DNA of 64,000 nucleotides from Candidatus Woesearchaeota archaeon (GCA_047602885.1 JBLKOQ010000001.1:10016-74015), one strand, 5' to 3'; numbered from the stretch's first letter, positions 1 through 51,568 are shown. The notes: a model not told the origin generated them from the letters alone. Made by a program: numbers and translations.

Positions 1-1677
1 TTGACAGAAGACTATCATAGCGAGAACAACCATGATACAAGAATACTCACAGTATCAGAAAGACCAAATGTATTGTTGATAAGCTCTAAAAGTCCAAGTC
101 CGTTATCCTTTACGTTGCAGCAGCTATACAATCTTACTACAAGACAAAGCCTTATGGGCATAGACGATGAGAGCCTCGCAGAGCACTATGCGATAATACT
201 GGACGACCAGCCGTTTGCAAGAATAAGAGCATACCAGAATATGATAAGCGATTATGTAATAGATGGCAATGGTCTTGTGGTCGTCGGCGGCAAAGAAAGC
301 TATGAGTTCGGAAGATACAAGGACAGTGTTCTAGAAAAGATACTGCCTGTAAGAGTTGGGGACGCTGAGCCTACAGAACCCACAACTACCAATGTAGCAT
401 TAGTAATAGACATATCAGGAAGCACAGGACTCGCATTCTCTGACGATACAGAGATGACAGTGGTTGAAATGATAAAAAACCTTGCTGTAGGAGTACTAAG
501 AACATTAAGGCCCAATGATTATGTCACTGTAATAGCATTTAACAGGCAATACTTCATGATAGCAGACCTAGCTCAAGTATCTGCGCAGCAAGGACTTGAA
601 GGAAGAATACTGAGACTTCAATTCCACGGAGGCACATCCTTAGCAGTAGGAATGAACAGGGCGATAGACGAGATATCAAGAGCTTCAGGAGACAAGTACG
701 TAATACTGTTTTCTGACGGCATAAGCCAGTCTGAAAGGGCTGACGAGCTCTCAGCATACAGCATGAGAAACGGCGGAATAACACTATACACGGTAGGAGT
801 AGGCGATGGCACCGACGTAGCTCATATGAGAAGACTGGCACAGATTACAGGAGGAACATTCTTCCAGCCCGGAGAAGAGGACAAATTCAAGATACTGTTC
901 AGCCCTCAAGAAGACACTCCTACAGACCCTCAGGCGCCACAAGAGCCCGAAAGATACATGCTATCAGCATGGGACGAGCACCACTTCATATCAAGAGAGC
1001 TTAGGATGCAGAGCTTTGTAGCAGGATACAATAGAGTAGTACCAAAAACAGGAGCTAGAACATTAGTAGTTACAGAACAGAACAATCCCATAGTAACAGC
1101 AGGATTCTTTGGCTTGGGTAGAATAGTTGCCATGAGCACAGACAACGGACAGGAATGGGCAGGAAACATATACGAGAGGAACCCAGAACTAATAGCAAGA
1201 GCAGTAAACTATGCCATAGGAGACCCCGGGGAAAGACAGGAATTATACGTTAAGGCAGAGAATGCGAGGGAAGGGAGGCCTTTTGACATTATGATATTCA
1301 GCAAAGCCCAGATACCATTAAATATCACTATCAGCAATCAGACAGTACAGTTCAGGGAAGAAAGATACGGATTGTACAGGGGAACAGCAATGCTCGAGGC
1401 AGGAGTCCACACCGTATTAGGAAGGAAAATAGCAGTATCATACGATCCGGAATACCAATACAATCCACGAGGAATAAGGAGTGCTGCCATTGCTACGGGA
1501 GGAACAGTATTCGAGATTACAGAGTCAGAAGAAATAATCGAAAAGATAAGACAGGATACGATAAGGACAGAGCAGACTTCAGAATCAGCAGCACACTTCT
1601 TCTTGCTCATAGCAGGAATAATATTCCTGATAGACGTGTGCTGGAGAAGGCTTTCAGAGAACAGGGGGGGAATATGA
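1..1677 (+). CDS. von Willebrand factor A (VWA) domain membrane protein, 5'-partial (BatA-like); MIDAS motif DISGST, C-terminal TM helix
   Basis: ORF runs in from the window edge; VWA fold motifs (DxSxS ... T ... D) around aa 125-300; C-terminal hydrophobic segment; sits with MoxR + DUF58 downstream. Confidence 0.7.
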   Translation: MTEDYHSENNHDTRILTVSERPNVLLISSKSPSPLSFTLQQLYNLTTRQSLMGIDDESLAEHYAIILDDQPFARIRAYQNMISDYVIDGNGLVVVGGKESYEFGRYKDSVLEKILPVRVGDAEPTEPTTTNVALVIDISGSTGLAFSDDTEMTVVEMIKNLAVGVLRTLRPNDYVTVIAFNRQYFMIADLAQVSAQQGLEGRILRLQFHGGTSLAVGMNRAIDEISRASGDKYVILFSDGISQSERADELSAYSMRNGGITLYTVGVGDGTDVAHMRRLAQITGGTFFQPGEEDKFKILFSPQEDTPTDPQAPQEPERYMLSAWDEHHFISRELRMQSFVAGYNRVVPKTGARTLVVTEQNNPIVTAGFFGLGRIVAMSTDNGQEWAGNIYERNPELIARAVNYAIGDPGERQELYVKAENAREGRPFDIMIFSKAQIPLNITISNQTVQFREERYGLYRGTAMLEAGVHTVLGRKIAVSYDPEYQYNPRGIRSAAIATGGTVFEITESEEIIEKIRQDTIRTEQTSESAAHFFLLIAGIIFLIDVCWRRLSENRGGI

Positions 1678-2144
1678 TGCGGTACATAAGGAACAATGTA
1701 AACATACTATTATTGCTCATAATAATCGTAATGGCTGTTACCATGATAGGATACAACAACTACCAGGACAATCTTACAAGGGACATAATGGAAGAGAACA
1801 AGGAGATGAGAAGAGAGCTCACAGAACTAAAAGATGACCTTGGCATGAAAGAAGACAGGCTAAGAGAAACATTCTCGGAACTACAAAGACAGCTCCAGGA
1901 CAGCATACGATTCGAGTCATTATACACTGACATCGCATCAGAGAGAGAGTCTTTGAACAGCAGCCTGTCAGAAATGACAGCAAGATGGCAGGACGAGCAG
2001 AGCAGGAGGCGGGAACTGGAGGTTAGGGCCACATCATTAGAAAACCAGCTTAACAGCAGAACTATAGAACTGCAGGTCGCAGAAGGAGCCCTCGGAGGAT
2101 GCATGGCCTCCCTCACAGCATGCAGAGCCCAGCTCGACAACTAG
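1638..2144 (+). CDS. small membrane-anchored coiled-coil protein (start probably at the internal Met near 1674)
   Basis: N-terminal TM helix then heptad-rich E/R/L sequence; overlaps VWA gene end; native codon usage. Confidence 0.4.
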   Translation: MLEKAFREQGGNMMRYIRNNVNILLLLIIIVMAVTMIGYNNYQDNLTRDIMEENKEMRRELTELKDDLGMKEDRLRETFSELQRQLQDSIRFESLYTDIASERESLNSSLSEMTARWQDEQSRRRELEVRATSLENQLNSRTIELQVAEGALGGCMASLTACRAQLDN

Positions 2145-2171
2145 TGTTAATATTATTAGGATGATGCAATA

Positions 2172-3017
2172 ATGAAAAAGAAGAACAGGCGCGAGGAGAC
2201 AAGAGAACTCCTGATGAGGAATAAGACCAAGAGGAAGGCATTAAGACTTTATGATGAGCTTACTACAGCAAAGAACATGATGATGCTGTTTAGAATAATG
2301 CTTAGTACGTCAGCATGGACTCTTGCAATAATGATAATAGCAAGATTCTTCATGATAAATGCTTGGTATCTCTCGCCCATACCCTTATTATTCATGACTT
2401 TGGGAATAATAAGAATGGCAAGGGTTGACGCTCTAAGAAAGGCCGAAGAAAAGCACAAGGAGTTTAATGAACAACTGACTACGGCAAAAGACAATTTTTT
2501 CAAGGAGAACGAGATGATAGAACAGCTCGAAGAGGACATAGTGATGAGGTCAAGACTATTGACTACAAGCATGTACTTTGAGAGAAAACAAGTATTATTC
2601 TCAATAATAGTCATATGCATAATGCTCTTTGGAACAAGTTACATAGCAGAATATGATGTTAGAGATATACCAAGATTATTCGAGCCAGTAATAGACGCTG
2701 CAGAACAATATTTTCCAAGAACACTAACATGGGCTCAGAGAGTAAGCGTTACGGGAATGGAGGATGCAGGAGACCTTGAAAGTTCAGACGACATATACGG
2801 GGACAGGTCGGAATACATTGAGCGGACAAGAGAAATACCAATAGAACTCCAGACTGCAAGGGACGCACTAGACCTTAGCAGCATCAGGGAAATAGAAGAG
2901 AGGGATTTTGACAATTATGCTCCGAGCGACTTGAGGATAGCAGCAGCAGAGACTTATGAGAATACTATACCATTAGAAAAATACAGCGTGGTAAGAAACT
3001 ATTTTATGATTGACTGA
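2172..3017 (+). CDS. hypothetical membrane protein (2-3 TM helices, acidic C-terminal half)
   Basis: Long ORF with native codon usage, TM segments, between VWA and MoxR genes. Confidence 0.4.
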   Translation: MKKKNRREETRELLMRNKTKRKALRLYDELTTAKNMMMLFRIMLSTSAWTLAIMIIARFFMINAWYLSPIPLLFMTLGIIRMARVDALRKAEEKHKEFNEQLTTAKDNFFKENEMIEQLEEDIVMRSRLLTTSMYFERKQVLFSIIVICIMLFGTSYIAEYDVRDIPRLFEPVIDAAEQYFPRTLTWAQRVSVTGMEDAGDLESSDDIYGDRSEYIERTREIPIELQTARDALDLSSIREIEERDFDNYAPSDLRIAAAETYENTIPLEKYSVVRNYFMID

Positions 3018-3960
3018 GGTGCAAAACAATATGGAAGGATATGACAAGCAATTCGAACCGATATTCAAGGAGATAAGAAAAGTAGTGGTAGGACAGGACG
3101 AAATGATAGAAGGCCTCCTGATAGGGCTTCTAAGCGACGGTAACGTATTATTGGAAGGATACCCTGGACTCGCAAAGACACTAGCGGTGAAGAGTTTTAG
3201 CGAAGCAATGGACTTGGTTTTTAGCAGGATACAGAATACTCCTGACCTAATGCCAACAGACATTACAGGAACACATATAATACAAGAGTCGGGAGGAAAA
3301 AGACAATTTAAGTTTCAGCCAGGCCCAATATTTGCGAACATATTACTGGCGGACGAAATTAACAGGGCGACGCCAAAGACACAGTCAGCACTGCTAGAAG
3401 CGATGCAGGAAAAACAAGTGACAGTAGCAGGAGAGACATTTGCACTGGACCTTCCCTTCTTCGTACTTGCCACACAAAACCCTATAGAACAGGAAGGCAC
3501 TTATCCTTTGCCCGAAGCCCAGGCAGACAGGTTCCTCCTAAAAATAGTATTAGGATATCCGAGCCCTAAAGAAGAGCTAGAGATAGTATCACGGTTTGCT
3601 GAGGAGAGCAAACTGCCAAAGATAAGAAAAGTGGTGAGCAAGAGCGAAATACAAAAAATGCAGGGACAAGCCGAGAAGTTGCCAGTGTCAGAAGAAATCA
3701 AGAAGAAAGCAGTAAAGCTAGCCGCACTAACAAGGATGAGCCAGCACCTCGCATACGGAGCAAGCCCAAGGGCAAGCATAGCACTAGTCAAGACCAGCAA
3801 GGCAAGAGCTCTTATCAGGGGAAGAAAATATGTGAGTACTGAGGATATTGCCGCTATGGCAAAACCAGTATTAAGACATAGAATAATACTCAACTTCGAG
3901 GCTGAAAGACAAGGGCTAACACCCGACACCATAATAGAAGAGATATTAAAGAGCGTTTAA
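3010..3960 (+). CDS. MoxR-family AAA+ ATPase
   Basis: Walker A GYPGLAKT, Walker B LLADEINR, sensor motifs; 316 aa typical MoxR size; followed by DUF58 gene. Confidence 0.85.
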   Translation: MTEVQNNMEGYDKQFEPIFKEIRKVVVGQDEMIEGLLIGLLSDGNVLLEGYPGLAKTLAVKSFSEAMDLVFSRIQNTPDLMPTDITGTHIIQESGGKRQFKFQPGPIFANILLADEINRATPKTQSALLEAMQEKQVTVAGETFALDLPFFVLATQNPIEQEGTYPLPEAQADRFLLKIVLGYPSPKEELEIVSRFAEESKLPKIRKVVSKSEIQKMQGQAEKLPVSEEIKKKAVKLAALTRMSQHLAYGASPRASIALVKTSKARALIRGRKYVSTEDIAAMAKPVLRHRIILNFEAERQGLTPDTIIEEILKSV

Positions 3961-3961
3961 T

Positions 3962-4813
3962 ATGATAAGCACAGAATTCCTAAAGGACCTCGAAAAATTC
4001 TCTCTAATAGTGAGAAAGAAGATATCCTCAAAATACCAGGGTCAGAGGACGAGCAGAGAGCCAGGAAGGGGTATAACATTAAGAGAGCACAGACAATATA
4101 CTTCCCAGGACGATATTAGGACTATAGACTGGAAGGTATATGCGAGGACAGACGACCTCTTCGTAAGAGTGTATGAGGAGGATAAAGACTTATCGGTACA
4201 CTTGATACTAGATGCAACCAAGAGCATGGACTACGGAAATATGATAAGCAAATATGAGTATGCGAGCATGATAGGAGCAGGATTCTTATACCTTGCCATG
4301 AGGAGCAATGAAAGATACAAATACACAATATTGGGTGATGACATGGAAGTTCATCCAATGAAGAGAGGAAGGCATCATTTCGGAGGATACGTGAATACTA
4401 TCAACAAGAGAAAACCCCAAGGTACAATGCAGCTCTCTGATGCCATAGAAGCATACAGGAAGATACTAAAATCTAAGAGCCTAGTCATAATAATAAGCGA
4501 TTTTTTGGAGGACAATGAAAGGATAGATATGATGCTAAGAAGTCTTAGGAAGCATGATGTCAGGATAATACAAGTATTGGACAACGACGAGATAGTGCTG
4601 CCTTTCGAAGGAGACTACAAGTTCGAAGACCCCGAGTCAGGAACGAGGATGAGAACATTCATAGGACAGGGCCCGAGAGCAGAATACATAAGAAAGCTGG
4701 AAAGCCATAATAATAGCATAATGCAGTCATGCGACACCCTAGGATTCGAATACTACCTTGCTAATACGAGCGATCCCATATTCGAGTCTTTCTTTAACAT
4801 AATAAACTATTAA
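3962..4813 (+). CDS. DUF58 domain protein (MoxR/VWA operon partner)
   Basis: DxRxIDWKVYARTDDLFVR signature of DUF58; 2-nt spacing after MoxR gene. Confidence 0.75.
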   Translation: MISTEFLKDLEKFSLIVRKKISSKYQGQRTSREPGRGITLREHRQYTSQDDIRTIDWKVYARTDDLFVRVYEEDKDLSVHLILDATKSMDYGNMISKYEYASMIGAGFLYLAMRSNERYKYTILGDDMEVHPMKRGRHHFGGYVNTINKRKPQGTMQLSDAIEAYRKILKSKSLVIIISDFLEDNERIDMMLRSLRKHDVRIIQVLDNDEIVLPFEGDYKFEDPESGTRMRTFIGQGPRAEYIRKLESHNNSIMQSCDTLGFEYYLANTSDPIFESFFNIINY

Positions 4814-5723: not shown

Positions 5724-5780
5724 AATTATTTACCCTAATAGGGATATGGGGGTTAGTAAGTCATTATAATAATTAGCCCT

Positions 5781-5921
5781 GGCTCTGTCCTAAATCTCCT
5801 ACTTCGCTTACCAAAACCCTATACTAAAGCATAGGAGCTTGGTAAGCTACGCCGTGCCAGTGCCATTATTGCTGCGCAAAATGACACCAACAATGGCAAC
5901 GACGGAGTCTTAGGACAGAGC
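5781..5921. mobile_element. MITE-like element, copy 4 (same GGCTCTGT termini as the other three copies, different internal sequence), flanked by perfect 10-bp direct repeat AATTAGCCCT
   Basis: 5' end GGCTCTGTCCTAAATCTCC and 3' end reverse-complementary GGAGTCTTAGGACAGAGC; direct repeats at 5771-5780 and 5922-5931; GC-rich and internally hairpinned relative to surroundings. Confidence 0.45.
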
Positions 5922-5970
5922 AATTAGCCCTAAAACGCTTATAAACAATATGGTGTGGTATAGCATCACA

Positions 5971-5977
5971 TTTATAA
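5971..5977 (+). promoter_or_regulatory. archaeal TATA box (TTTATAA) about 27 nt upstream of the crtI start
   Basis: A/T box at canonical archaeal distance from ATG 6001 (leaderless-type spacing). Confidence 0.3.
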
Positions 5978-6000: not shown

Positions 6001-7476
6001 ATGGCAATAAAAGCAATAATAATAGGGGCTGGCTATGGAGGGCTTAGCTGCGCAGCACTCCTGGCTAAGGAAGGATATGACGTTCATGTAATAGACAAGA
6101 TAGAACAAGCAGGAGGAAAAGGAAGCCTGCTCCAAGAGGAAGGATTCTCATTCGATATGGGACCTAGCTGGTACCTAATGCCCGACGTATTCGAAAAGTT
6201 CTTCAGCGAATTTGGGAAGAAGCCTGAAGACTATTATACTATAAAGAGGCTTGACCCGTCATACAGGATATACTTTGGGAAGGATGACAAGATAGACATA
6301 AGCCCGAGAATAGAGGACAATGCAGAACTGTTTGATAAACTGGAAGAGAATGGCAGAAAGAAATTCCTGGATTATTTGGCACAGTCAGAATACCAGTATA
6401 ATGTGGCTATGAAGGACTTCGTATACAAGAGGTACACTAAGATAACCGATTTTTTTAACAAAAGGATGGCTACGGAGGGTATGAAGCTAAAAGTGCTAAA
6501 GAATTTTGATAAGCACGTAAGCACATACTTCAAGAGCGACAAGGCAAAAAAGATACTCGAATACAATATAGTATTTCTTGGAGGAACGCCATACAATACC
6601 CCTGCATTGTACAGCATAATGACTCACGTAGACTTCAACCTTGGAGTATGGTATCCTATAGGAGGACTAAACGCAGTAGCAAAAGGAATAGAAAAACTTG
6701 CTTTAGAGCATAATGCAAAATTCACATATAATCATACTGCAGAAAAGATAATAGTAGAAAACGGCAGAGCAGTAGGAGTGATGACCAACAAGGGGAGGAT
6801 AGATGCTGACATAGTCGTCGTTAATGCTGACATGCCACACGCCGAAATCAGCTTATTGGACAAGAAATACCAGTCTTATAACGAAAAGTATTGGGAGAAG
6901 AAGACTATAGCGCCCTCAGGGTTCATAATGTATCTTGGTGTAAAAAGGAAAGTGAAAGGATTAGAACATCATAATCTATTCCTGGACAATGACTGGATGA
7001 AACACTTCGACCAGATATTCAAGAAGCCCGGATGGCCTGACAATCCATCATACTATGTGTGCGCTCCTACAATAACAGAGCCAGAAACAGCTCCTAACGG
7101 AATGGAAAACCTATTCATACTGGTTCCTGTAGCAGCCGACCTGGAGGACAATAACGACATAAGAGAAGAGTATGCCTCCGACATAATAAGGCATTTGGGA
7201 AGCATAATAGGTGATGATTTCAGCAAAGACATAGTATACAAGAAGATATTCGCCCATAATGATTTCATACAAAGATATAATGCGTATAAAGGTACAGCAC
7301 TAGGATTATCACACACCCTCATGCAGTCAGCACTATTCAGGCCTGACGTTAAGAGCAAGAAAGTAAAATCATTGTATTATACTGGACAATACGTGCATCC
7401 CGGCATAGGAGTGCCCATGGTAATAATAGCATCAGACATACTGCGCGGTGTAATACTAAATGAGCATCCGCTTTGA
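6001..7476 (+). CDS. crtI: phytoene desaturase-family FAD-dependent carotenoid desaturase (CrtI/CrtD)
   Basis: N-terminal dinucleotide-binding motif IIGAGYGGLSCAALLAKEGYDVHVIDK...GG; 491 aa; operon with crtB. Confidence 0.85.
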   Translation: MAIKAIIIGAGYGGLSCAALLAKEGYDVHVIDKIEQAGGKGSLLQEEGFSFDMGPSWYLMPDVFEKFFSEFGKKPEDYYTIKRLDPSYRIYFGKDDKIDISPRIEDNAELFDKLEENGRKKFLDYLAQSEYQYNVAMKDFVYKRYTKITDFFNKRMATEGMKLKVLKNFDKHVSTYFKSDKAKKILEYNIVFLGGTPYNTPALYSIMTHVDFNLGVWYPIGGLNAVAKGIEKLALEHNAKFTYNHTAEKIIVENGRAVGVMTNKGRIDADIVVVNADMPHAEISLLDKKYQSYNEKYWEKKTIAPSGFIMYLGVKRKVKGLEHHNLFLDNDWMKHFDQIFKKPGWPDNPSYYVCAPTITEPETAPNGMENLFILVPVAADLEDNNDIREEYASDIIRHLGSIIGDDFSKDIVYKKIFAHNDFIQRYNAYKGTALGLSHTLMQSALFRPDVKSKKVKSLYYTGQYVHPGIGVPMVIIASDILRGVILNEHPL

Positions 7477-8287
7477 AAAAATATTCAAGAGAGCAAGTAC
7501 AACCTACTATTATAGTAGCATATTCTTTCCTAAAAGAACAAAAATAGATATTTTTGCATTGTATGCTTATGTCAGGACGGCAGACGACTATGTCGATTCC
7601 ACACCGCAAGACAGCAAGGGATTCTTGCAATACAAGAAAGAAACATTCGACATGCTAGACGGAAAAAGAGACTCGGATAATATGATAATAGCCGAGTTTG
7701 TAAGGCTTTCCAAGAGAAAAGGATTTGAGAGGGAATGGATAGTTTCATTCCTTAACGCTATGGAATCAGACCTTACAAAAAAGACTTACGATAATAGTAA
7801 GGAATTGGACTTATACATATACGGCTCTGCCGAAGTAATAGGGCTTATGATATGCAAGATTATAGGAATAAAAAAAGAGTATTATCAAGGCGCAAAAAAA
7901 ATGGGTTATAGCATGCAACTAATCAACTTCATAAGAGACATAGAAGAAGACAATAACCTTGGAAGAACATACATTCCTGAAGAAGAATACAAGAAGCACG
8001 GTTTGAATAGCCTTACAAGAAAGGAAGCTGTAAGAAATGGAGAAGCTTTTGAAAATATCATAAGAGAACAGATAAAAAAGTATAAGAGCATAAAAAAAGA
8101 AGCGCATAAATCATTAAGAGGAATACCTTACAGGCAGAGAATACCTATAAAGACAGCGTCCGACCTTTACAATTGGACTGCAGACCAGATCGATAATAAT
8201 CCCATGATAGTATACAGTAAAAAGGTTAAACCCAAAAAGTCACGAGTAATATTATACATTATAAGAAACGCAATATTTCCATGGTAG
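7460..8287 (+). CDS. crtB: phytoene synthase (squalene/phytoene synthase family)
   Basis: Two Asp-rich motifs YAYVRTADDYVDS and FIRDIEEDNNLGRTYIP; overlaps crtI by 17 nt. Confidence 0.8.
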   Translation: MSIRFEKIFKRASTTYYYSSIFFPKRTKIDIFALYAYVRTADDYVDSTPQDSKGFLQYKKETFDMLDGKRDSDNMIIAEFVRLSKRKGFEREWIVSFLNAMESDLTKKTYDNSKELDLYIYGSAEVIGLMICKIIGIKKEYYQGAKKMGYSMQLINFIRDIEEDNNLGRTYIPEEEYKKHGLNSLTRKEAVRNGEAFENIIREQIKKYKSIKKEAHKSLRGIPYRQRIPIKTASDLYNWTADQIDNNPMIVYSKKVKPKKSRVILYIIRNAIFPW

Positions 8288-8288
8288 A

Positions 8289-9143
8289 TTGATCATAATG
8301 GACATCAAAAGAATAATAAAAATGTCAAGGCCGAGATTCTGGCTATATCTGGCAGGAACATTCATGGTAGGATACGCTTACGGAATAAATGATGTTTCAT
8401 CACTGTTACAACCATCATTCATTATACCATTCCTAATATTCCTGATACCAGCAAACATATTCGTATACGGTATTAATGATATTGCAGACAGGGAGATGGA
8501 CAAGAACAATCCAAAAAAGGATGACAATAAAGAGAGTGCTGTAAGGAAAGGAGAGGAGAAGACTATTGCGATAACAGTATGGGCAAGCCTCATAATAATG
8601 ATAACAGGACTCATGTTTTATACTGACATTACAGGAATGATATTATTGGCTGTATTTATCATATTAGGGGCAGGATATAGCCTAAAACCATTACGTCTTA
8701 AAGAAAAACCTTTCCTGGACTTTCTGTCAAACTCATTCTATATAATCCCAGGAATAATAGGATATTATATAGCATCAAACAGCGTGCCTCCCATGATAAT
8801 ATGGCTTATGGGAATAAGCTGGACGGGAGCAATGCACCTCTACAGTGCAATACCAGACATCATCCCAGACAAGAAGTCAGGAATAATGACCGCTGCAACA
8901 GTACTCGGACACAAGAACAGCCTATTATATTGTTCATTATTATGGAGTCTTTTTGTATTGTCACTCATAATACTTGAGGTACACATAATACTATTATTGG
9001 CAAGCCTTACTTATGTAATAATACCACTAATACTAATGTTCATGCCACAAGAAAGCGTTACGAGAGCATACTGGAAATATCCTTACATCAACGCTTTTAT
9101 AGGGATGCTGTTCTTTCTTAACGCAGTACTAATGATAATATGA
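8289..9143 (+). CDS. UbiA-family prenyltransferase, likely lycopene elongase-type given its carotenoid context
   Basis: NDIADREMD motif (UbiA NDxxDxxxD), about 8 TM helices; immediately after crtB. Confidence 0.6.
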   Translation: MIIMDIKRIIKMSRPRFWLYLAGTFMVGYAYGINDVSSLLQPSFIIPFLIFLIPANIFVYGINDIADREMDKNNPKKDDNKESAVRKGEEKTIAITVWASLIIMITGLMFYTDITGMILLAVFIILGAGYSLKPLRLKEKPFLDFLSNSFYIIPGIIGYYIASNSVPPMIIWLMGISWTGAMHLYSAIPDIIPDKKSGIMTAATVLGHKNSLLYCSLLWSLFVLSLIILEVHIILLLASLTYVIIPLILMFMPQESVTRAYWKYPYINAFIGMLFFLNAVLMII

Positions 9144-9152
9144 GATGATACT

Positions 9153-9932
9153 ATGAACAGGGAAAAGAATGTCATACCAATAATACCCTCATTATTCATA
9201 TTTACCATAATACTAATAGCATTTTCAGGACTTATGACAGGACTAGGATACGAGCTTAGAGGGCATGGCATAATAGCAATGACACTAACATTCCTCATAG
9301 GACTCCCTACCATAATAGCAGTAGGCAAGTATAAGGAAGGAATAAGACTATTGTTAATACTTGGAATATACACTTATATCATAGAATCCATCGGAGTAAT
9401 AACAGGGTATCCTTACGGGAGATTCTATTATGGGGAGATGATGGGATACAACCTATTTGGCATAGTTCCTATAGTACTGCCACTAGCATACATGCCACTA
9501 GCTATAGGCGCATATTATATTGCAGACAAACTATCTCCCAATAAGGCCATGATAATAACACTTAAGATAATGATGCTATTGTTGTTCGATTTAGTTTTGG
9601 ATCCTGGGGCTGCGGCTCTCGGATACTGGATATGGGAAAATTCTGGAGCATACTATGGGATACCACTAACCAATTATATAGGATGGATTATAAGCAGCCT
9701 TATTACAGCACTGATATGCTCATATCATTATAAGAGCATTAGAAAAGCCAATCCTAAACTAATACTTGCAAGCCCATTATTGTTCATGGTATACTGGACA
9801 TTCACAGTAATAGGCCTTGGGATGATAATACCAAGCATTATAGGAATAATAACTATTATAGTATTAGGAGGGTTTATAGTAAGTCCCAAAGCAAGAAGAT
9901 ACCATCATGGCAATACCTTTAAAAGCAAATAA
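9153..9932 (+). CDS. carotenoid-biosynthesis-associated integral membrane protein (CruF-like hydratase candidate)
   Basis: Polytopic membrane protein with TGYPYGRFYYG motif, sited after the UbiA gene as lyeJ-cruF is in haloarchaeal C50 carotenoid clusters; assignment by context. Confidence 0.4.
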   Translation: MNREKNVIPIIPSLFIFTIILIAFSGLMTGLGYELRGHGIIAMTLTFLIGLPTIIAVGKYKEGIRLLLILGIYTYIIESIGVITGYPYGRFYYGEMMGYNLFGIVPIVLPLAYMPLAIGAYYIADKLSPNKAMIITLKIMMLLLFDLVLDPGAAALGYWIWENSGAYYGIPLTNYIGWIISSLITALICSYHYKSIRKANPKLILASPLLFMVYWTFTVIGLGMIIPSIIGIITIIVLGGFIVSPKARRYHHGNTFKSK

Positions 9933-9946
9933 CATATGTTACTATT

Positions 9947-11095
9947 ATGGCATTCAAAGTGACTCCTTGGGAGGTTAAAGGGAACATAAAGTATGACAGG
10001 CTAATAGAACAGTTCGGGCTCTCAAGAATTACAGACAATCATATAGAACGGATAGAGAGAATAGCAGGAGAATCGCATTACATGCTAAGAAGAGGAGTGT
10101 TCATAGCCCACAGAGATTTGGACTGGATACTCGACAATTATGAGAAGGGAAAACCATTCTACTTGTATACTGGGAGGGGACCTTCAGGAGACATTCATAT
10201 AGGGCATGCAATGCCATGGATATTTGTTAAATGGTTACAGGACAAGTTCAATGCAATACTATACTTTCAGTTTACTGATGACGAAAAGTTCCTGTTCAAA
10301 GAAGGATTAGATTTGGCGAAAGTAGAAGAAGCATTATACGAGAACATGCTGGACGTTGCTGCATTCGGCTTTAACCCCGAAAGAACAGTGTTCGTATCAG
10401 ATATTAGGGACATAGAATTATTGTATCCTCACGCGCTAAAAGTATCAAAGAAAATCAATTATAGCACTGCAAAAGCAGTCTTCGGATTCAAGGACGATAC
10501 AAATATTGGACAGTTATTCTTTACGAGCATACAGAGCGTTCCTAGTTTTCTGCACTCGGAGATTACAGGCACTAAAATGCCATGCCTAATACCACACGCT
10601 GTAGACCAGGACCCTCATTTTAGGGTATCACGTGATGTGTTGCCTAAACTCGGGCATTACAAGCCAGCTTCAATACAATGCGTATTCCTCCCGGGACTCG
10701 AAGGGGAAGGGAAGCTGAGCAGCAGCGAAGGCAACATCATAGGATTGCATGATGACGAGAAGACTATAAGAAAAAAAATTAATAAATACGCATATTCGGG
10801 TGGTAGAGACACTGTAGAAGAGCATAGGGCTAAGGGCGGGAGGTCTGAAATGGACATATCATACCAGTATATGAGGATGATGTTCGAGCCAGACGATAAA
10901 GTCTTATCGAGAATAGAGGATGATTATCGCACAGGAAAACTATTGTCTGGAGAGATAAAAAATATGCTGATAGACCGCATAACAAAATACAATAATGCTC
11001 ATAAGGAATCAAGAAAGAAGGCTGAGAAGAACATCAAAGACTATCTTATTACGGAAGAAAAGATAATGCATTTGAAAAGTATAACAAAAAAATAA
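9947..11095 (+). CDS. trpS: tryptophan--tRNA ligase (archaeal/eukaryotic type class I aaRS)
   Basis: HIGH-type motif GDIHIGHAM and KMSKS-type motif KLSSSEG; 382 aa. Confidence 0.75.
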   Translation: MAFKVTPWEVKGNIKYDRLIEQFGLSRITDNHIERIERIAGESHYMLRRGVFIAHRDLDWILDNYEKGKPFYLYTGRGPSGDIHIGHAMPWIFVKWLQDKFNAILYFQFTDDEKFLFKEGLDLAKVEEALYENMLDVAAFGFNPERTVFVSDIRDIELLYPHALKVSKKINYSTAKAVFGFKDDTNIGQLFFTSIQSVPSFLHSEITGTKMPCLIPHAVDQDPHFRVSRDVLPKLGHYKPASIQCVFLPGLEGEGKLSSSEGNIIGLHDDEKTIRKKINKYAYSGGRDTVEEHRAKGGRSEMDISYQYMRMMFEPDDKVLSRIEDDYRTGKLLSGEIKNMLIDRITKYNNAHKESRKKAEKNIKDYLITEEKIMHLKSITKK

Positions 11096-14361: not shown

Positions 14362-14814
14362 TTATTGATTCTTAATCCATTCGATAACATTCTGGGAATG
14401 GGTTTTAGGACTAACATTCTCCCAAACCATCAATATCTTTCCATTGTCAACTGCAAAAGTAGTCCTGGAGACGCCTTTAAACAGCTTTCCATAAAGGCTT
14501 TTTTCCCGAATAACACCAAAAGAATTAGCAGCCAACCTATCAGTATCAGATAATAGCTTATAGGGCAATGAAAGTTTGGAAGCAAAACTATTATGGCTCT
14601 TCCCGCTGTCAGGACTAATGCCCATAATATCCCATCCTAAAGATACTATCTCGGCATAATAGTCGCGCGCATTGCACGCCTGCTGAGTGCATCCAGGAGT
14701 ATTATCCTTAGGATAAAAGAATATAATAGTCTTATTCAATGATGCAAGACTATGATTATTCCCTTCATAGTCCACTATTTTTATGTCAGGAACCTTATCG
14801 TTCTTATTAAGCAC
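14362..14814 (-). CDS. bcp: peroxiredoxin, Bcp/AhpC-TSA family
   Basis: FFYPKDNTPGCTQQAC peroxidatic Cys motif; 150 aa. Confidence 0.8.
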   Translation of the reverse strand: MLNKNDKVPDIKIVDYEGNNHSLASLNKTIIFFYPKDNTPGCTQQACNARDYYAEIVSLGWDIMGISPDSGKSHNSFASKLSLPYKLLSDTDRLAANSFGVIREKSLYGKLFKGVSRTTFAVDNGKILMVWENVSPKTHSQNVIEWIKNQ

Positions 14815-15685: not shown

Positions 15686-16324
15686 ATGCAAACCAATATA
15701 AATGATACTATTATAGTATCAATTGATACTAAAATGGAAACGAAATTAAGGATTATAAACAGGATAGACAGGAAAAGCGGCGGAGTGCACATAAGGCAAC
15801 TGGCAAGAGAGGCTAATACAAGCTATAATAATGCAGTAAGAAACATCAGGATACTCGAAAAAGAGAATATTGTAAGAAGAATAAAAGATGCCAACCTCAT
15901 AAAAATATCCCTAAAAGACAATCCTATGACAATAGCATACCTCAAAAAAGTTCATACAGAAAAATACTATAATCTTCCACGAAGAGCAATATTAGCTGTG
16001 AATGAACTAATAAAAGAAATCATCCCAAAACCCCTAATATGCCTAATATTCGGATCATACGCCCGGGGAGATTACCACAAGGATTCGGACATCGACCTGC
16101 TGCTTGTATTCCAGAATGTACAGTCATCAATAAATATAGAAAGACTGGCAAAGGCTATAGGTATGAGAAACAATATAGTTATCAGTCCAATTTACATGAA
16201 CTACAAGGAATATTCTACCAACTTTCTAAACGTAGAACACGATTTCTCTAAAGAAATAAGAAATGACACGATAATAGTTTTAGGACTAGAACACTATTAT
16301 GAGCTATACTGGAGAATATTATAA
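15686..16324 (+). CDS. winged-HTH + minimal nucleotidyltransferase (MNT) domain protein, paralog 1 of 4
   Basis: GSYARGDYHKDSDIDLLLVF polymerase-beta-type NTase motif (GS...DxD) after N-terminal wHTH. Confidence 0.65.
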   Translation: MQTNINDTIIVSIDTKMETKLRIINRIDRKSGGVHIRQLAREANTSYNNAVRNIRILEKENIVRRIKDANLIKISLKDNPMTIAYLKKVHTEKYYNLPRRAILAVNELIKEIIPKPLICLIFGSYARGDYHKDSDIDLLLVFQNVQSSINIERLAKAIGMRNNIVISPIYMNYKEYSTNFLNVEHDFSKEIRNDTIIVLGLEHYYELYWRIL

Positions 16325-16332
16325 TACATTTA

Positions 16333-17187
16333 TTATTTTATCTTAGAATACAGTTTCTTTATCATCACAGCATCGCCCTCAATATTAGGGCTTTCTGATA
16401 TGAAGACGCCTGAAATATTATACTCTTTTAAGACTCCAACCCAGTCCTTATACGCGAAGTCACTCTCTTCCAGCACAAGATGATTCTTCTCTCCTTTAGC
16501 AGTATATTCTATGCCGGAATAATGTACGTGCATATTCTCTAAACCCCTCTTGCCAAGAGACTCTTCTACCATTCCAAAAACCTTCCTGAACTCTTCTATA
16601 GTATTATACGCTCCATTGCTCCTGGCATGAAGATGGGCAAAATCAATACAAGGCATAATCTTCTCTAAACCCTGACTGATATCTAATAATTCTTTTAGAG
16701 TGCCGAACTGTGACTGTTTCCCTGTAGTTTCAGGTCTGATCCAAACATCTAAAGATTCGTCATTAGCAATCCTCTCCATATCAACAATGCTTTTTCTTAT
16801 CTTATCATAAACCCTTGTATGGTCATCCTTAAAATAGTATCCTGGATGATACACTACAGAATATCCTCTAGCATGATTTAGCATCCTGGCAGACTGGAGT
16901 ATCCTATGCTTTGAGGCTTCTATCTTTTCTTGCTCTACAGCATTAAGATTAACATAGTATGGGGCGTGGGCAGTAAGAACAATATCATTATTATCAGCTA
17001 CTAGTCCTGCTTCCATAGCACTACTTTCTTTCAAGAATACGCTATGCACGAATTCCAGTTCCATAGCATCAAGGCCCAATTCTTTTACTTGTATGATTCC
17101 ATTAATCGTATTGGGCTTAACAGTCGATAATGGTATTCCTGCAGTGCCAAACAACAATCCATTAATCTTTTTCATAATCATCCCCAT
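16333..17187 (-). CDS. nfo: endonuclease IV-family AP endonuclease (xylose isomerase-like TIM barrel)
   Basis: TIM-barrel AP-endonuclease 2 family motifs (HAPYYVNL, HxHxS-like metal ligands), 284 aa. Confidence 0.65.
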   Translation of the reverse strand: MGMIMKKINGLLFGTAGIPLSTVKPNTINGIIQVKELGLDAMELEFVHSVFLKESSAMEAGLVADNNDIVLTAHAPYYVNLNAVEQEKIEASKHRILQSARMLNHARGYSVVYHPGYYFKDDHTRVYDKIRKSIVDMERIANDESLDVWIRPETTGKQSQFGTLKELLDISQGLEKIMPCIDFAHLHARSNGAYNTIEEFRKVFGMVEESLGKRGLENMHVHYSGIEYTAKGEKNHLVLEESDFAYKDWVGVLKEYNISGVFISESPNIEGDAVMIKKLYSKIK

Positions 17188-17903
17188 GACTCTGTCTTAA
17201 TCTTATCCATAGGAACGCCCATACCCACCAGTATTTGGACAGACAATGATATGAGTCCTTTAGGCCCGCATATAAAATAGATTTTTTCAGCAGGATTACT
17301 AAACATTCTCATAAAATATTTCTCGTTAATTATGCCCTTAACAATAAAGTCATTAATATCAATATCCTGATTAGTAATAAAATGAGTAACCATCAGATTA
17401 TCCTTATGAGCGCAGTATTCCATAAGCTGTTCTCTATAACAAATATCTCCCATAGTCTTATTGCTAAGTAGCAGGAACATTCTATTATTCTTATTATTGT
17501 CAATATAATATTTTATTAGCGACCTATAAGGCACTACTCCCGAGCCTCCTGCTATCATGACAATATCAGAGTCTATAGACTCATCCCTAATATAGGGGAG
17601 TCCCAACGGTCCTAACACTTCTATCTCATCGCCTACATTAAGCTTGAAGAGGGCATGAGTAAAAGAGCCTACTAGCTTGACACTAATCATAATATTGTCC
17701 TCTGTAGGACTAGTGGCAATGCTATAAGACCTCTTCCCAATATCTTCCTGGCCTTTAATAGTACAATTAATAAAATGCCCCGGCCTATAATCGAATAATG
17801 GAGCGCCATCACTAGGAGAGAGTATGAAACTCTTCATATTATGGGTTTCGTCAACAATACTATTAATAGTATAATATTTTTTGGATACAGGATAGCGTTT
17901 CAC
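17178..17903 (-). CDS. FNR-like FAD/NAD(P)-binding oxidoreductase
   Basis: FAD motif RSYSIATSP and NAD(P) motif MIAGGSGVVP; 241 aa. Confidence 0.65.
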   Translation of the reverse strand: MKRYPVSKKYYTINSIVDETHNMKSFILSPSDGAPLFDYRPGHFINCTIKGQEDIGKRSYSIATSPTEDNIMISVKLVGSFTHALFKLNVGDEIEVLGPLGLPYIRDESIDSDIVMIAGGSGVVPYRSLIKYYIDNNKNNRMFLLLSNKTMGDICYREQLMEYCAHKDNLMVTHFITNQDIDINDFIVKGIINEKYFMRMFSNPAEKIYFICGPKGLISLSVQILVGMGVPMDKIKTESWG

Positions 17904-28024: not shown

Positions 28025-28525
28025 TTACAATAATAATATCTCTTGGGTTTTGTTCATAAATCCTATGACTTTGCTCTCATATTCTAATATCTTATCATTC
28101 CTAAAACCTATATTAGTGTTATAACTCGCTTTATGCCTGTCATATTTTAAGTCATAATACAATTGTGCGTCCTCCCTATTGATAGACAATTCGTATAATA
28201 AGTCCGCTTCATCTCTTGTCACAAGATACTCTTTTATGAGTATGAGCATAGTCGCATAGTGGTTTTTGGAATAATATCTTCTGTTGGTAATTAAGCTCAG
28301 TGCGCAATGGTAGAATGCATAATACAATATTACTATGAGCCAGTCTGCAAAATTGGTATGGATTTTGTTTATACTATAAAACCTCATATTGTGCTTGGCC
28401 TTATTAGCATGCGAAAAAGCAAGTTCCTTATTCTCCTTAATAATCCTAATCTGTTTTTGCGATTGCAGTATGCTTATCTCGGTCTCCAGATAATGTTTGT
28501 CTGCAAATAGTCGTTCGATATTCAT
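28025..28525 (-). CDS. HEPN-like helical protein, putative toxin partner of the upstream MNT gene
   Basis: 166 aa, 4-nt overlap with the NTase gene; Rx4-6H-like RRYYSKNH; homologous to 61571..62074 (YYAxY...S.NH..T.L). Confidence 0.4.
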   Translation of the reverse strand: MNIERLFADKHYLETEISILQSQKQIRIIKENKELAFSHANKAKHNMRFYSINKIHTNFADWLIVILYYAFYHCALSLITNRRYYSKNHYATMLILIKEYLVTRDEADLLYELSINREDAQLYYDLKYDRHKASYNTNIGFRNDKILEYESKVIGFMNKTQEILLL

Positions 28526-29088
28526 TCTATAATCGCCTCATAAAAATTCTGTTCCTTGTGTATTGGAAAACCTGTCTTTTTTGCCTGTATTATTATATCG
28601 TCATTACTTCGAATAAACTGCTCTGCAGAACAATAGAAGAGCGAGAGAGGATATTTTGAGGTTATCTCAGCCTCTTTCCTGCGCTTATCAAGGTCAGTTT
28701 TTTTATAGTACACTATGAGGAGGTCTATATCGCTGTTTTGATTCTGATCTCCGGTCGATGCAGAACCGAACAGAACTATAGTGTATATGCTTATGGGCAA
28801 GTCTTTGAGGAATGTCCTGAGAGGGCTCTTAACACCAATATTTAATGAATTGAATTTGCGTATTGCTATCTCTGAGAACTTGATTGCAATAATCTTTTTA
28901 TCACTAATAGAATAGTATACGTTTTGCCTGGTCTTTTCAGTTTTTAGTATGCCTTGCCTACTCATTCTGGCAAGAGTGTTCTGCAAAGAACTATGTGATA
29001 GCATAGTAGTTTCCTTAATCTGGTTATAGTACATCTTTTCTCCCTTCTGCACAAAGTATGCGTTGTATATTCTGTCTTCCGGTTTCAT
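28522..29088 (-). CDS. winged-HTH + minimal nucleotidyltransferase (MNT) protein, paralog 2
   Basis: LFGSASTGDQNQNSDIDLLIVY NTase motif, N-terminal wHTH. Confidence 0.65.
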   Translation of the reverse strand: MKPEDRIYNAYFVQKGEKMYYNQIKETTMLSHSSLQNTLARMSRQGILKTEKTRQNVYYSISDKKIIAIKFSEIAIRKFNSLNIGVKSPLRTFLKDLPISIYTIVLFGSASTGDQNQNSDIDLLIVYYKKTDLDKRRKEAEITSKYPLSLFYCSAEQFIRSNDDIIIQAKKTGFPIHKEQNFYEAIIE

Positions 29089-32321: not shown

Positions 32322-32903
32322 CTATCTTATCATCTCATAGAAATATTCCGTTCCGTGCAATATAATATTATTATTAATCGCTTCTGAGCCCACAGTAAAT
32401 TCTTTAGACATACTCATAGACTTGAATTCTGTTTCATTAAAAACGTTGATATGTAGAGGCAGTGGTATAGTGGATGATATGCTCATTATTTCTTTATTCA
32501 TAATTTCTTCTAGACCATCGGGTATGATGAACAATAGATCAATATCAGAATGTCTTGTTGGGTTTCTTTTAGCATAACTTCCAAAAAGCAACAATACGAA
32601 GAATACAGTACTCATATTATTATAATAGCTTAAAACTGCTCTTATCGTCTTATTTCTTAGGATATCTTCTCTTCTATTATGCTCTGCTTCAAATATGTAG
32701 GGGTGCGGTTTTTTTACTAGTGTGACTTTGTGGGCATTTCCAAAAGGCTCTAATACTACTATGTTATTGTTTGCTAATCTCATAATTATATTATGCATGT
32801 TCTTATAATCCTTTTTTAGTATCTTGGCCAGTCCTCTAATGCTCAATCTCAGGTTATTGTAGTCCAATAATGCCTGGATAACTTTTACATCTGCTTTTTG
32901 CAT
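32322..32903 (-). CDS. winged-HTH + minimal nucleotidyltransferase (MNT) protein, paralog 3 (no HEPN partner)
   Basis: LFGSYAKRNPTRHSDIDLLFII NTase motif. Confidence 0.6.
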   Translation of the reverse strand: MQKADVKVIQALLDYNNLRLSIRGLAKILKKDYKNMHNIIMRLANNNIVVLEPFGNAHKVTLVKKPHPYIFEAEHNRREDILRNKTIRAVLSYYNNMSTVFFVLLLFGSYAKRNPTRHSDIDLLFIIPDGLEEIMNKEIMSISSTIPLPLHINVFNETEFKSMSMSKEFTVGSEAINNNIILHGTEYFYEMIR

Positions 32904-51073: not shown

Positions 51074-51568
51074 ATGACCAAAATAATAGTAATGCTAGCA
51101 ATAATATTATTGGCTGTAGGGGCATGCCAGTCAGAAGAGCCCCCAACACAGGACACTACAGTGCCAGTAGACACTACTAATGATAATGACCTGCAAGAAG
51201 AACATGATGATAGTGATGAATATTATGACTGGGATGATTATGAAGACTGGGAAGAATACGACAATTACTGGGATGACGATTGGGATGACGAATACGAATA
51301 CTATGACTACGATGAATATGATTATGAGGATTACATCACAATAGAAGAGCTCTCAACACATAATACCCTTGATGATTGCTGGATAGCATACGAAGGAGAA
51401 GTCTATGACATAACACTATACTTATCAAGACATCCTGGAGGGGCAGGGGCAATAATCCCATACTGCGGGACAGCAGGAGAGTTTGAAGAAGCCTTTGACG
51501 GCCAGCATGGTCCAACTCAGTACCAAACACTATTAAGAGAAGCAGTATTTGTAGGAATGCTAGTATGA
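51074..51568 (+). CDS. secreted cytochrome b5-like heme-binding domain protein with an extreme Asp/Glu/Tyr/Trp-rich tract
   Basis: Signal peptide; acidic-aromatic tract DDSDEYYDWDDYEDWEEYDNYWDDDWDDEYEYYDYDEYDYEDY; cyt-b5 motif AYEGEVYDITLYLSRHPGG. Confidence 0.55.
   Translation: MTKIIVMLAIILLAVGACQSEEPPTQDTTVPVDTTNDNDLQEEHDDSDEYYDWDDYEDWEEYDNYWDDDWDDEYEYYDYDEYDYEDYITIEELSTHNTLDDCWIAYEGEVYDITLYLSRHPGGAGAIIPYCGTAGEFEEAFDGQHGPTQYQTLLREAVFVGMLV

Follow-up and report, generated by a model that had tools for sequence, protein, structure and literature searches.

The question raised by this locus is whether an archaeon of the Woesearchaeota encodes a C50 carotenoid pathway of its own, and whether a tryptophan-tRNA ligase gene belongs to that pathway. 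The window, that is, the whole 64-kb stretch of DNA that was analyzed, contained five consecutive genes whose products belonged to the families Amino_oxidase/CrtI, SQS_PSY, UbiA, Caroten_synth (PF04240), and tRNA-synt_1b/TrpRS (Table 1). The first four genes (6001-9932) are predicted, with a probability of about 0.7, to form an operon leading from GGPP to an acyclic, hydroxylated carotenoid of the bacterioruberin type with 50 (or 45) carbon atoms. What is unusual about the operon is its host; the pathway is a known one.

Table 1. Features of the carotenoid locus and of the adjacent trpS gene (window coordinates)
Feature	Position	Strand	Basis
TATA-like box (TTTATAA)	5971-5977	+	Sequence read; 30 nt 5' of the crtI ATG
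crtID-like FAD-dependent carotenoid desaturase, 491 aa	6001-7476	+	NCBIfam, PDB, identity
crtB-like phytoene synthase, 275 aa	7460-8287	+	PF00494 (167 bits), Asp-rich motifs
lyeJ-like UbiA-family prenyltransferase, polytopic membrane protein, 281-284 aa	8289-9143	+	NF009516, motifs
cruF-like carotenoid hydratase with about 7 hydrophobic segments, 259 aa	9153-9932	+	PF04240, hydropathy
Putative trpS promoter GCAATACCTTTAAAA, within the last cruF codons	9910-9924	+	Conserved in relatives
trpS, archaeal DPANN-type tryptophan-tRNA ligase	9947-11095	+	NF008927, 501 bits (cut-off 478)

Gene content and organization of the locus

The gene order given in a preliminary description of this DNA (CrtI/CrtD, CrtB, a UbiA protein with the motif NDIADREMD, a CruF-like protein, and TrpRS) and the tight packing with overlaps or gaps of 17 nt or less were both confirmed. 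The genes are separated, in order, by a 17-nt overlap and by gaps of 1, 9, and 14 nt; the third gene has a TTG start at 8289, and the ATG start at 8298 adopted by NCBI widens the first gap to 10 nt. The four carotenoid genes thus lie on one strand with gaps of at most 10 nt; the haloarchaeal loci are organized as crtID-lyeJ-cruF. Spacing of 17 nt or less was found in 18 of the 32 same-strand neighbor pairs of the whole window, which has a coding density of 91%. Because tight spacing is the norm in this Woesearchaeon genome, packing alone is uninformative on functional linkage. The TATA-like box at 5971 is the putative promoter of a crtID-crtB-lyeJ-cruF transcript that is probably leaderless. 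TTTAWA showed a roughly 6-fold enrichment at -31 to -24 before the first genes of units in the window, and the same promoter-motif scan found none before crtB, ubiA, and cruF. Scans with sigma-70 and terminator models, which are not applicable to an archaeon, gave no excess over shuffled sequence. A structured 140-nt element located 5' of crtI was considered as an ncRNA gene or riboswitch and is instead read as a MITE because of its target-site duplications; Rfam (at the gathering threshold) and ARAGORN detected no RNA genes in the whole window.

The first gene is predicted to encode a desaturase of the type that is both a phytoene desaturase and a 3,4-desaturase (CrtID-like). Its product scored 677 bits against the NCBIfam equivalog model for CrtID (NF058655, cut-off 640), for which a Haloarcula desaturase and a Methanobacteriaceae homologue used as controls scored 764 and 698, respectively, and 453 bits against TIGR02734. 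The nearest PDB entries were CrtD (4rep, 1e-58) and CrtI (4dgk, 5e-54), and identity to the full-length desaturases of haloarchaeal clusters was 41-47% (39% in one case). CrtID is a bifunctional phytoene/3,4-desaturase (Yatsunami 2024, PMC11946383). Since the protein exceeds the cut-off of this bifunctional model, the earlier choice between CrtI and CrtD dissolves.

The second gene is predicted to encode a phytoene-synthase-like SQS_PSY enzyme of a non-haloarchaeal subfamily. Both Asp-rich motifs of CrtB (DDyvD and DieeD, aligned to the motifs of CrtM) were intact, and the protein was 39-50% identical to CrtB of crtI-crtB-lyeJ clusters and 23-29% identical to haloarchaeal and Asgard CrtB. It remained below the NCBIfam equivalog cut-offs (best CrtB model, 86.7 vs. 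500; HpnD, 131.7 vs. 278.6); however, these models are no guide to the identity of CrtB, as a genuine haloarchaeal CrtB, the Halococcus control, fails them too (151.7 vs. 500; HpnD, 195). The closest solved structures in the PDB were C30 CrtM enzymes. Ser20 of the window protein aligned with F26 of Staphylococcus aureus CrtM, a position occupied by Phe in all three solved C30 synthases. Umeno and co-workers reportedly found in 2002 that the bulk of Phe26 restricts CrtM to C30 substrates; the small Ser20 is compatible with C40 substrates.

The UbiA protein is predicted to be a lycopene elongase of the LyeJ family, and possibly also a hydratase. It matched NF009516 with 288.5 bits (cut-off 205), the model that was also the best for the LyeJ orthologue of Haloarcula (449 bits). 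The motif GINDIADREMD occupied residues 61-71; the motifs NDxxDxxxD and SAIPDIxxD were invariant in the family, with N63, D64, D67, D71, D190, and D194 conserved in all 37 members, haloarchaea included. An identity as DGGGP synthase was rejected, in agreement with the preliminary description: no DGGGPS model of NCBIfam matched at E<0.01, and the family profile was remote from DGGGPS of Methanocaldococcus jannaschii (6m31, E=0.0014, 21 bits). The same profile matched AfUbiA (4tq3) at 5e-20 with 75 bits; a single-sequence search of the PDB returned nothing, and structures with the UbiA fold came up with the family profile only.

The product of the fourth gene is classified as CruF-like by PF04240 (154.8 bits, cut-off 25), below equivalog level: it narrowly missed the cut-off of TIGR03460 for CruF (149.5 vs. 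154.7) and fell short of that of NF041333 for CruF_Halo (120 vs. 300). A function as lycopene cyclase was discarded, since only PF04240 and the CruF models matched and no lycopene cyclase family did. As a calibration, the proteins of the crtD-lyeJ-cruF cluster of Haloarcula amylolytica matched the same models best. The CrtID, LyeJ, PF04240, and SQS_PSY scores bear out the proposed match between the first four genes and the crtD-lyeJ-cruF module of haloarchaea, with a phytoene synthase added.

Predicted pathway and product

By analogy with the pathway of Haloarcula japonica, CrtB would join two molecules of GGPP to form phytoene, and the single CrtID-type desaturase would convert phytoene to lycopene and later introduce the 3,4 double bonds. 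From DMAPP, the LyeJ-like enzyme would transfer a C5 unit onto each end, with hydration, and the CruF-like membrane protein would hydrate the added C5 units. The product may stiffen the membrane or give protection from oxidation or light. Isoprenoid synthesis is missing in many DPANN archaea. Pfam scans of the rest of the 64-kb window detected no GGPP synthase, mevalonate-pathway gene, rhodopsin, cyclase, or photolyase, and because the operon itself lacks a GGPP synthase, the precursors would have to be supplied by another part of the genome or by a partner organism.

In H. japonica, c0507-c0506-c0505 constitute the crtD/crtID-lyeJ-cruF module for bacterioruberin (Yang et al., 2015; Yatsunami et al., 2024, PMC11946383). 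The window shares with this module the same three enzyme families, arranged in matching relative order (desaturase, UbiA elongase, and CruF), a single bifunctional CrtI/CrtD-type desaturase, and an acyclic route lacking a cyclase. In contrast, the window carries a crtB of a different SQS_PSY subfamily between the desaturase and the elongase, its CruF scores below the NCBIfam cut-off, its proteins share only 30-47% identity with their haloarchaeal counterparts and are placed outside the haloarchaeal clade, and its host is a low-GC DPANN archaeon with a non-acidic proteome. The decaprenoxanthin cluster of Corynebacterium glutamicum (crtE-crtB-crtI-crtYe/Yf-crtEb; PMC3598387) likewise combines crtB and crtI in one operon with a C50 route and a UbiA-family elongase acting on lycopene, a likeness drawn indirectly as far as CrtEb is concerned, whereas its CrtYe/Yf cyclase leads to cyclic C50 products. 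The CruF-type hydratase and the lack of a cyclase in the window point to an acyclic product.

The operon might instead make a carotenoid other than bacterioruberin, namely a C40 hydroxy-lycopene derivative, a mono-elongated C45 compound, or a C30-based product if the CrtB-like enzyme uses FPP. The CrtB subfamily is uncharacterized and structurally closest to CrtM, the CruF score is below the equivalog level, and UbiA, CrtI, and CruF all fall outside the characterized haloarchaeal clade. We nevertheless consider such a product unlikely, because the desaturase passes the CrtID equivalog and not any C30 (CrtN) model, the Ser at the position of CrtM F26 is expected of C40-capable enzymes, sister clusters include a short-chain polyprenyl synthase, and all three genes of the haloarchaeal module occur together. 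It is far less probable that the substrates of these enzymes are not carotenoids but membrane ether lipids or other polyprenyl compounds. Methanogens and other anaerobes without known carotenoids commonly carry the cluster, and there is a precedent in the phytoene-desaturase homologue of Methanosarcina acetivorans that makes hydroxyarchaeol; CrtI homologues can act on archaeol, according to Mori (2015) as cited in PMC9128505 and PMC10821996. However, the operon encodes a head-to-head SQS_PSY synthase whose motifs are intact, the desaturase is scored as CrtID over its whole length, and the UbiA protein belongs to the LyeJ family, far from DGGGPS. The presence of CrtB and the CrtID score led us to reject a hydroxyarchaeol-type modification as the main explanation.

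Relationship of trpS to the carotenoid genes

Functional or obligatory transcriptional coupling of trpS to the carotenoid genes, as put forward in the preliminary description, found no support in the comparison with relatives. Within the 14-nt gap between cruF and trpS no terminator was recognizable, and read-through from cruF into trpS may occur. However, a TATA-like motif, CAATACCTTTAAAA, starts at 9918 inside the 3' end of cruF, 29 nt 5' of the trpS ATG, and the identical 14-mer of the putative promoter (9910-9924) occurred equally far from the trpS ATG in three related loci (L003, L086, and L087), with a similar box in a fourth (L088). In L003, trpS is preceded by a 245-nt spacer; in L086 (TrpRS 93% identical), no cruF coding sequence occurs within 243 nt upstream of trpS; and in L088 (TrpRS 62% identical), crt genes are absent upstream of it. 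Furthermore, the 80 other crt loci all lacked trpS within 6 kb. The adjacency of trpS and cruF is confined to a narrow lineage and is variable even inside that lineage.

Since the internal promoter motif is conserved and the adjacency is not, and since close spacing is the genome norm, it is very improbable that the operon includes trpS as a functional fifth gene through which carotenoid synthesis and Trp-tRNA charging are co-regulated. It appears to be a neighboring housekeeping gene outside the carotenoid pathway, with its own putative conserved promoter, that sits next to cruF because the genome is compact; loss of a spacer of about 230 nt may have brought it to within 14 nt. This case calls for caution in compact genomes, in which an internal promoter may hide in upstream coding sequence behind close spacing.

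Host assignment and distribution of the cluster

The host is a DPANN archaeon with a small genome (Woesearchaeota), as had been suspected from its DPANN-like traits. The MAG is labelled Candidatus Woesearchaeota by NCBI, the named best homologues of TrpRS were all from Woesearchaeota, Pacearchaeota, Nanoarchaeota, or Micrarchaeota, and a fused PriS-PriL primase is encoded at 62130-63734 on the same contig as the operon; the window contains no rRNA or tRNA. Codon usage in the operon was somewhat atypical (RSCU r=0.62; random four-gene sets gave 0.84 ± 0.09). A relative also carries the operon with both flanks, at 54-76% identity. Although Halobacteria are the group in which the module is best known, the idea that the carotenoid genes stem from contamination by a haloarchaeon or from mis-binning of the contig was rejected as extremely improbable, given a GC content of 37% in the operon and 38% elsewhere in the window, a non-acidic proteome (median pI 7.8), the low identity to haloarchaeal proteins, the linkage to the DPANN-type trpS and the fused primase, the recurrence of the operon with both flanks in three independent assemblies (Logan, JGI, and NCBI), and simple NJ trees (40 bootstraps, without characterized CrtEb or Lbt outgroups, and hence fit for coarse statements only) in which the haloarchaeal clade excluded the window protein with support of 0.97-1.0 for UbiA, CrtI, and CruF.

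Of the 80 genome loci with the UbiA relative, 70 contained the same genes as a cluster. In seven loci, crtB and lyeJ were separated by a gene with a length of about 335-360 aa, and all four of those scanned were polyprenyl-diphosphate synthases (crtE); this recurring gene set, together with crtE, fits a pathway from GGPP to carotenoids. Clusters of the type crtI-crtB-(crtE)-lyeJ(-cruF) occurred in other Woesearchaeota MAGs, Patescibacteria, methanogens, Asgard archaea, and other lineages, so the rarity ascribed to the locus was overstated. Those compared here, all uncharacterized, from uncultured Woesearchaeota (L006 and L015), Patescibacteria (L019, L023, L038, L047, and L059), methanogens (e.g., Methanoculleus frigidifontis, L032), and others, share with the window the CrtB subfamily (39-50% identity) and the order crtI-crtB-lyeJ, which in L006 extends to cruF after lyeJ. 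The window differs from L006 (scanned) and L015 (judged by position and size) in having no crtE between crtB and lyeJ, and the methanogen clusters differ in carrying cruF upstream of crtI. A point against the predicted pathway is the presence of the same cluster in strict anaerobes such as methanogens, for which we know of no report of a carotenoid. A 2022 review gave the carotenoid composition of methanogens as unknown (PMC9410494). The prediction is directly testable in this group, as M. frigidifontis is a cultured strain.

Patescibacteria from Lake Baikal harbor lyeJ, crtD, and cruF genes, for which a role in membrane adaptation was proposed (PMC9948471); like the window, they represent an ultra-small, host-dependent lineage with bacterioruberin-type genes, but the hosts are bacterial, the genes are mostly dispersed, and no crtB was discussed. 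Our literature search, mostly without subscription journals, found no paper describing a carotenoid operon in Woesearchaeota or DPANN. We tentatively propose, with slightly less than even confidence, that this lineage of Woesearchaeota produces a bacterioruberin-type C50 carotenoid of its own and is one visible tip of an unrecognized, very broad distribution of crtI-crtB-(crtE)-lyeJ-(cruF) across DPANN, Patescibacteria, methanogens, Asgard archaea, Bathyarchaeia, Armatimonadota, and Chloroflexota. If so, C50 carotenoids would be no speciality of haloarchaea and actinobacteria, and would serve as general membrane reinforcers or antioxidants of ultra-small and anaerobic cells. DPANN archaea are usually described as host-dependent for lipids. 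Ancestor reconstructions for cluster-2 DPANN predicted the majority of carotenoid biosynthesis pathways to be absent (PMC13195033), and in one well-studied nanohaloarchaeon the bacterioruberin of the host is largely excluded from the membrane (PMC11035636). An intact operon from GGPP to C50 in a Woesearchaeon suggests that some DPANN archaea tailor their own membranes.

The carotenoid genes and the proposed pathway

Four of the five plus-strand ORFs, whose positions in the preliminary description were borne out by the ORF call (table), are read here as an operon for a bacterioruberin-type C50 carotenoid, and trpS as a separate neighboring gene. All five gene families proposed earlier were supported by Pfam and NCBIfam. 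The tight packing was also confirmed: the end of crtI shares 17 nt with the start of crtB, 9 nt separate ubiA from cruF, and 14 nt separate cruF from trpS. Between crtB and ubiA lies 1 nt if ubiA starts at its TTG, or 10 nt if it starts at ATG 8298 (NCBI's choice). The coding density of the window is 91%, and spacing of 17 nt or less occurs in 18 of 32 same-strand neighbor pairs; close gene packing is thus genuine, yet not distinctive in the window.

The ORF at 6001 scored 677 bits (cut-off, 640) on NCBIfam NF058655, "bifunctional phytoene desaturase/3,4-desaturase CrtID." This model is based on the finding that, in the Haloarcula japonica crtD-lyeJ-cruF cluster, one desaturase has both CrtI and CrtD activity (PMC11946383). 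One desaturase is therefore enough, and the choice between CrtI and CrtD dissolves. The ORF at 8289 contains the motif NDIADREMD, as described, and scored 288.5 bits on NF009516 (cut-off, 205), the model that the UbiA gene of the Haloarcula amylolytica crtID-lyeJ-cruF cluster matches best (449 bits). No DGGGP synthase model matched this ORF in the NCBIfam scan, and a profile of 37 UbiA family members matched the M. jannaschii DGGGPS structure at E=0.0014 vs. 5e-20 for AfUbiA, so that its assignment as an elongase rather than a DGGGP synthase stands. The ORF at 9153 encodes a PF04240 protein with approximately seven hydrophobic segments; its best NCBIfam match was archaeal CruF, 5 bits below the cut-off, and no cyclase family was matched in Pfam or NCBIfam, in agreement with a CruF-like protein. 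The ORF at 7460 encodes a member of the SQS_PSY family in which both Asp-rich motifs are present. It exceeded no NCBIfam CrtB equivalog cut-off, and a genuine Halococcus CrtB failed likewise. A Ser is aligned with CrtM Phe26, a position occupied by Phe in all three solved C30 synthases; small residues at this site allow C40 synthesis.

By inference from the characterized Haloarcula pathway, CrtB would convert two GGPP to phytoene, and CrtID would desaturate phytoene to lycopene. The LyeJ-like enzyme would then add C5 units with hydration, CrtID would perform 3,4-desaturation, and the CruF-like protein would hydrate the C5 units, yielding bacterioruberin or a close relative. To our knowledge, none of these five steps requires O2 as a substrate, and an O2-independent route would suit the anaerobic hosts in which sister clusters occur. 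The 64-kb window contained neither a GGPP synthase gene nor mevalonate-pathway genes.

Promoters, trpS, and the element upstream of crtI

The preliminary description had coupled trpS to the carotenoid operon, and this point needs correction. Upstream of trpS lies GCAATACCTTTAAAA, in which a TTTAAAA box begins 29 nt before the ATG. It falls within the final codons of cruF in the window; in L003, a JGI contig of a relative with the operon and trpS, the promoter sequence is at the same distance from the ATG, but in a 245-nt spacer. The 14-mer CAATACCTTTAAAA is kept at this position in two trpS relatives (L086 and L087, with TrpRS 93 and 78% identical), and a third (L088, 62%) has a similar box. 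Adjacency varies among these relatives: the 243 nt available upstream of L086 trpS contain no cruF coding sequence, and upstream of L088 trpS, thymidine kinase and a gene of 157 aa take the place of crt genes. Among the best 80 other crt loci, none had trpS within 6 kb. The crtI gene is preceded by TTTATAA 30 nt ahead of its ATG; window-wide, TTTAWA clusters at -31 to -24 ahead of genes that open a unit, and none was found before crtB, lyeJ, or cruF. We read the crt operon and trpS as two predicted leaderless transcription units. Transcription may nevertheless read through from the operon into trpS, because no terminator was seen between cruF and trpS.

The trpS promoter sequence doubles as the last seven cruF codons (GNTFKSK, then stop; window 9900-9949; L003 7600-7881). 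Comparison of the two sequences suggests that approximately 230 nt were lost between short CAT(A/G)GCAATA repeats, joining cruF and trpS; a deletion here is inferred over an insertion in L003. The overlap of cruF and the trpS promoter would be a product of genome compaction. A 36-codon ORF (MAKDKIMVPDEIVAYKRSLNNKNLISLEDVRKALGR) occupies L003 7706-7816 within the spacer and is absent from the window.

The TATA box of crtI is preceded, at a distance of approximately 50 nt, by an element bounded by 13-bp terminal inverted repeats (GGCTCTGTCCTAA) and flanked by a 10-bp direct target-site duplication (AATTAGCCCT). Its minus-strand fold is very stable (-82 kcal/mol, z -8.1), Rfam gave no match, and it is missing from L003. 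Elements with these ends, spaced 100-130 nt apart, were found on 26 metagenomic contigs (L089-L114) with differing interiors, and 23 of the 26 had their own 9-11-bp flanking duplication, vs. 0.8% of mismatched flank pairs. The element belongs to a MITE family, for which no autonomous partner was identified; a role as a regulatory RNA of the operon is rejected because of the target-site duplications.

The host and the rest of the window

Identical proteins (MFT4308876-MFT4308880) are in GenBank, on an 85,109-bp contig of a MAG labeled "Candidatus Woesearchaeota archaeon," and the arrangement is repeated at 100% identity in two Logan assemblies. The best named TrpRS matches were exclusively DPANN (Woese-, Pace-, Nano-, and Micrarchaeota; 55-62% identity), and the GC content of the operon is 37.4% vs. 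38.4 ± 3.2% for the remaining genes. The median protein pI is 7.8; therefore, the host is no salt-in halophile. The operon's codon usage (r=0.62) is somewhat less typical than that of random four-gene sets (0.84 ± 0.09), but inside their range (minimum, 0.50). The window contained no rRNA or tRNA genes. A haloarchaeal contaminant, as considered earlier, is rejected on the MAG label, TrpRS matches, fused primase, GC content, and pI.

Features of the window
Feature	Position	Strand	Remarks
VWA, coiled-coil, DUF7502, MoxR AAA+ ATPase, DUF58 string	1-4813		upstream of thiF; syntenic in L003
MITE-like element	5781-5922 (with flanks 5771-5931)		142 bp; inside 277-nt thiF-crtI spacer
crtI/crtID	6001-7476	+	
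crtB	7460-8287	+	
lyeJ (UbiA)	8289-9143	+	
cruF	9153-9932	+	
trpS	9947-11095	+	
Peroxiredoxin (AhpC/TSA), FNR-like FAD/NAD oxidoreductase, very acidic cytochrome b5-like protein, DoxX protein	14362-14814, 17178-17903, 51074-51999		
Four paralogous nucleotidyltransferases (NTP_transf_2/Polbeta)	15686-16324, 28522-29088, 32322-32903, 61042-61662		~190-210 aa
Giant ORF	35422-48882	+	4486 aa; pI 4.25; RCC1-like beta-propeller repeats; six RLD stretches; RCC1 397 bits
Stand-alone Toprim protein	57401-57757		
Fused PriS-PriL primase	62130-63734	+	DNA primase small- and large-subunit domains in one ORF

The giant ORF probably encodes a surface or host-interaction protein, a kind frequent in DPANN. 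The nucleotidyltransferases are possibly related to toxin-antitoxin systems or defense, and the gene beside one of them (28025-28525) had no Pfam match. The peroxiredoxin, FNR-like, cytochrome b5-like, and DoxX genes suggest oxygen exposure or oxidative stress, which, if true, would fit an antioxidant pigment.

Relatives of the cluster

At least 580 relatives were recovered when the UbiA family was used to scan species representatives of GTDB, and the best 80 loci were searched with the window proteins. Two architectures were found in these 80 loci. The first, crtID-lyeJ-cruF, in which a CrtB of the 316-aa type is encoded at another site of the locus, occurs in Haloarchaea, Marine Group IV, and Asgard archaea; the second, crtI-crtB-lyeJ, in Woesearchaeota, Patescibacteria, Armatimonadota, Chloroflexota, Bathyarchaeia, and others, as well as in Methanomassiliicoccales, Methanobacteriaceae, and Methanomicrobiales. 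CrtB of the second architecture has 270-295 aa and is 39-50% identical to the window CrtB, but 23-29% to the haloarchaeal type; CrtB of the non-halophile clusters forms a subfamily distinct from that of haloarchaea, and the NJ tree has a deep split between the two types (support, 1.0). A clade of Haloarchaea, MGIV, and one uncultured archaeon excludes the window protein in the NJ trees of UbiA, CrtI, and CruF (0.97-1.0), and the window and L003 pair in every tree (1.0). Their proteins are 54-76% identical, and ten genes are syntenic: DUF7502-MoxR-DUF58-ThiF(-)-crtI-crtB-lyeJ-cruF-trpS-beta-propeller(-).

A gene of approximately 335-360 aa lies between crtB and lyeJ in seven loci (two Woesearchaeota, three Patescibacteria, and two labeled Gammaproteobacteria) and encodes a polyprenyl-diphosphate synthase in all four scanned (L006, L019, L047, and L085), which fits a dedicated GGPP-to-carotenoid pathway. 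The woesearchaeal locus L006 (crtI-crtB-crtE-lyeJ-cruF) has the window order plus crtE. In a Patescibacteria MAG (L023 6829-8166), the gene immediately after crtI-crtB-lyeJ encodes a DNA photolyase, which hints at a light-related context.

The bacterioruberin-type pathway is already known, and the operon genes carry generic annotation in GenBank; it is the host that is unusual. Bacterioruberin genes were noted earlier in Lake Baikal Patescibacteria (PMC9948471), and an ancestral reconstruction of DPANN predicted the majority of carotenoid pathways to be absent (PMC13195033). No paper describing an operon of this type in Woesearchaeota or elsewhere in DPANN was found in the literature searched. 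Methanogen carotenoids are unstudied according to a review (PMC9410494). Clusters of the crtI-crtB-(crtE)-lyeJ(-cruF) type are widespread beyond halophiles (for example, L032 3543-6822, L025 2583-6837, and L019 1738-6852), and their carriers include Methanocalculus, Thor- and Hermodarchaeota, and the cultured strain Methanoculleus frigidifontis FWC-SCC1, whose locus (L032) has the order cruF-crtI-crtB-lyeJ. We know of no pigment in most of these non-halophile groups. The more interesting lead is how widely crtI-crtB-(crtE)-lyeJ clusters are distributed.
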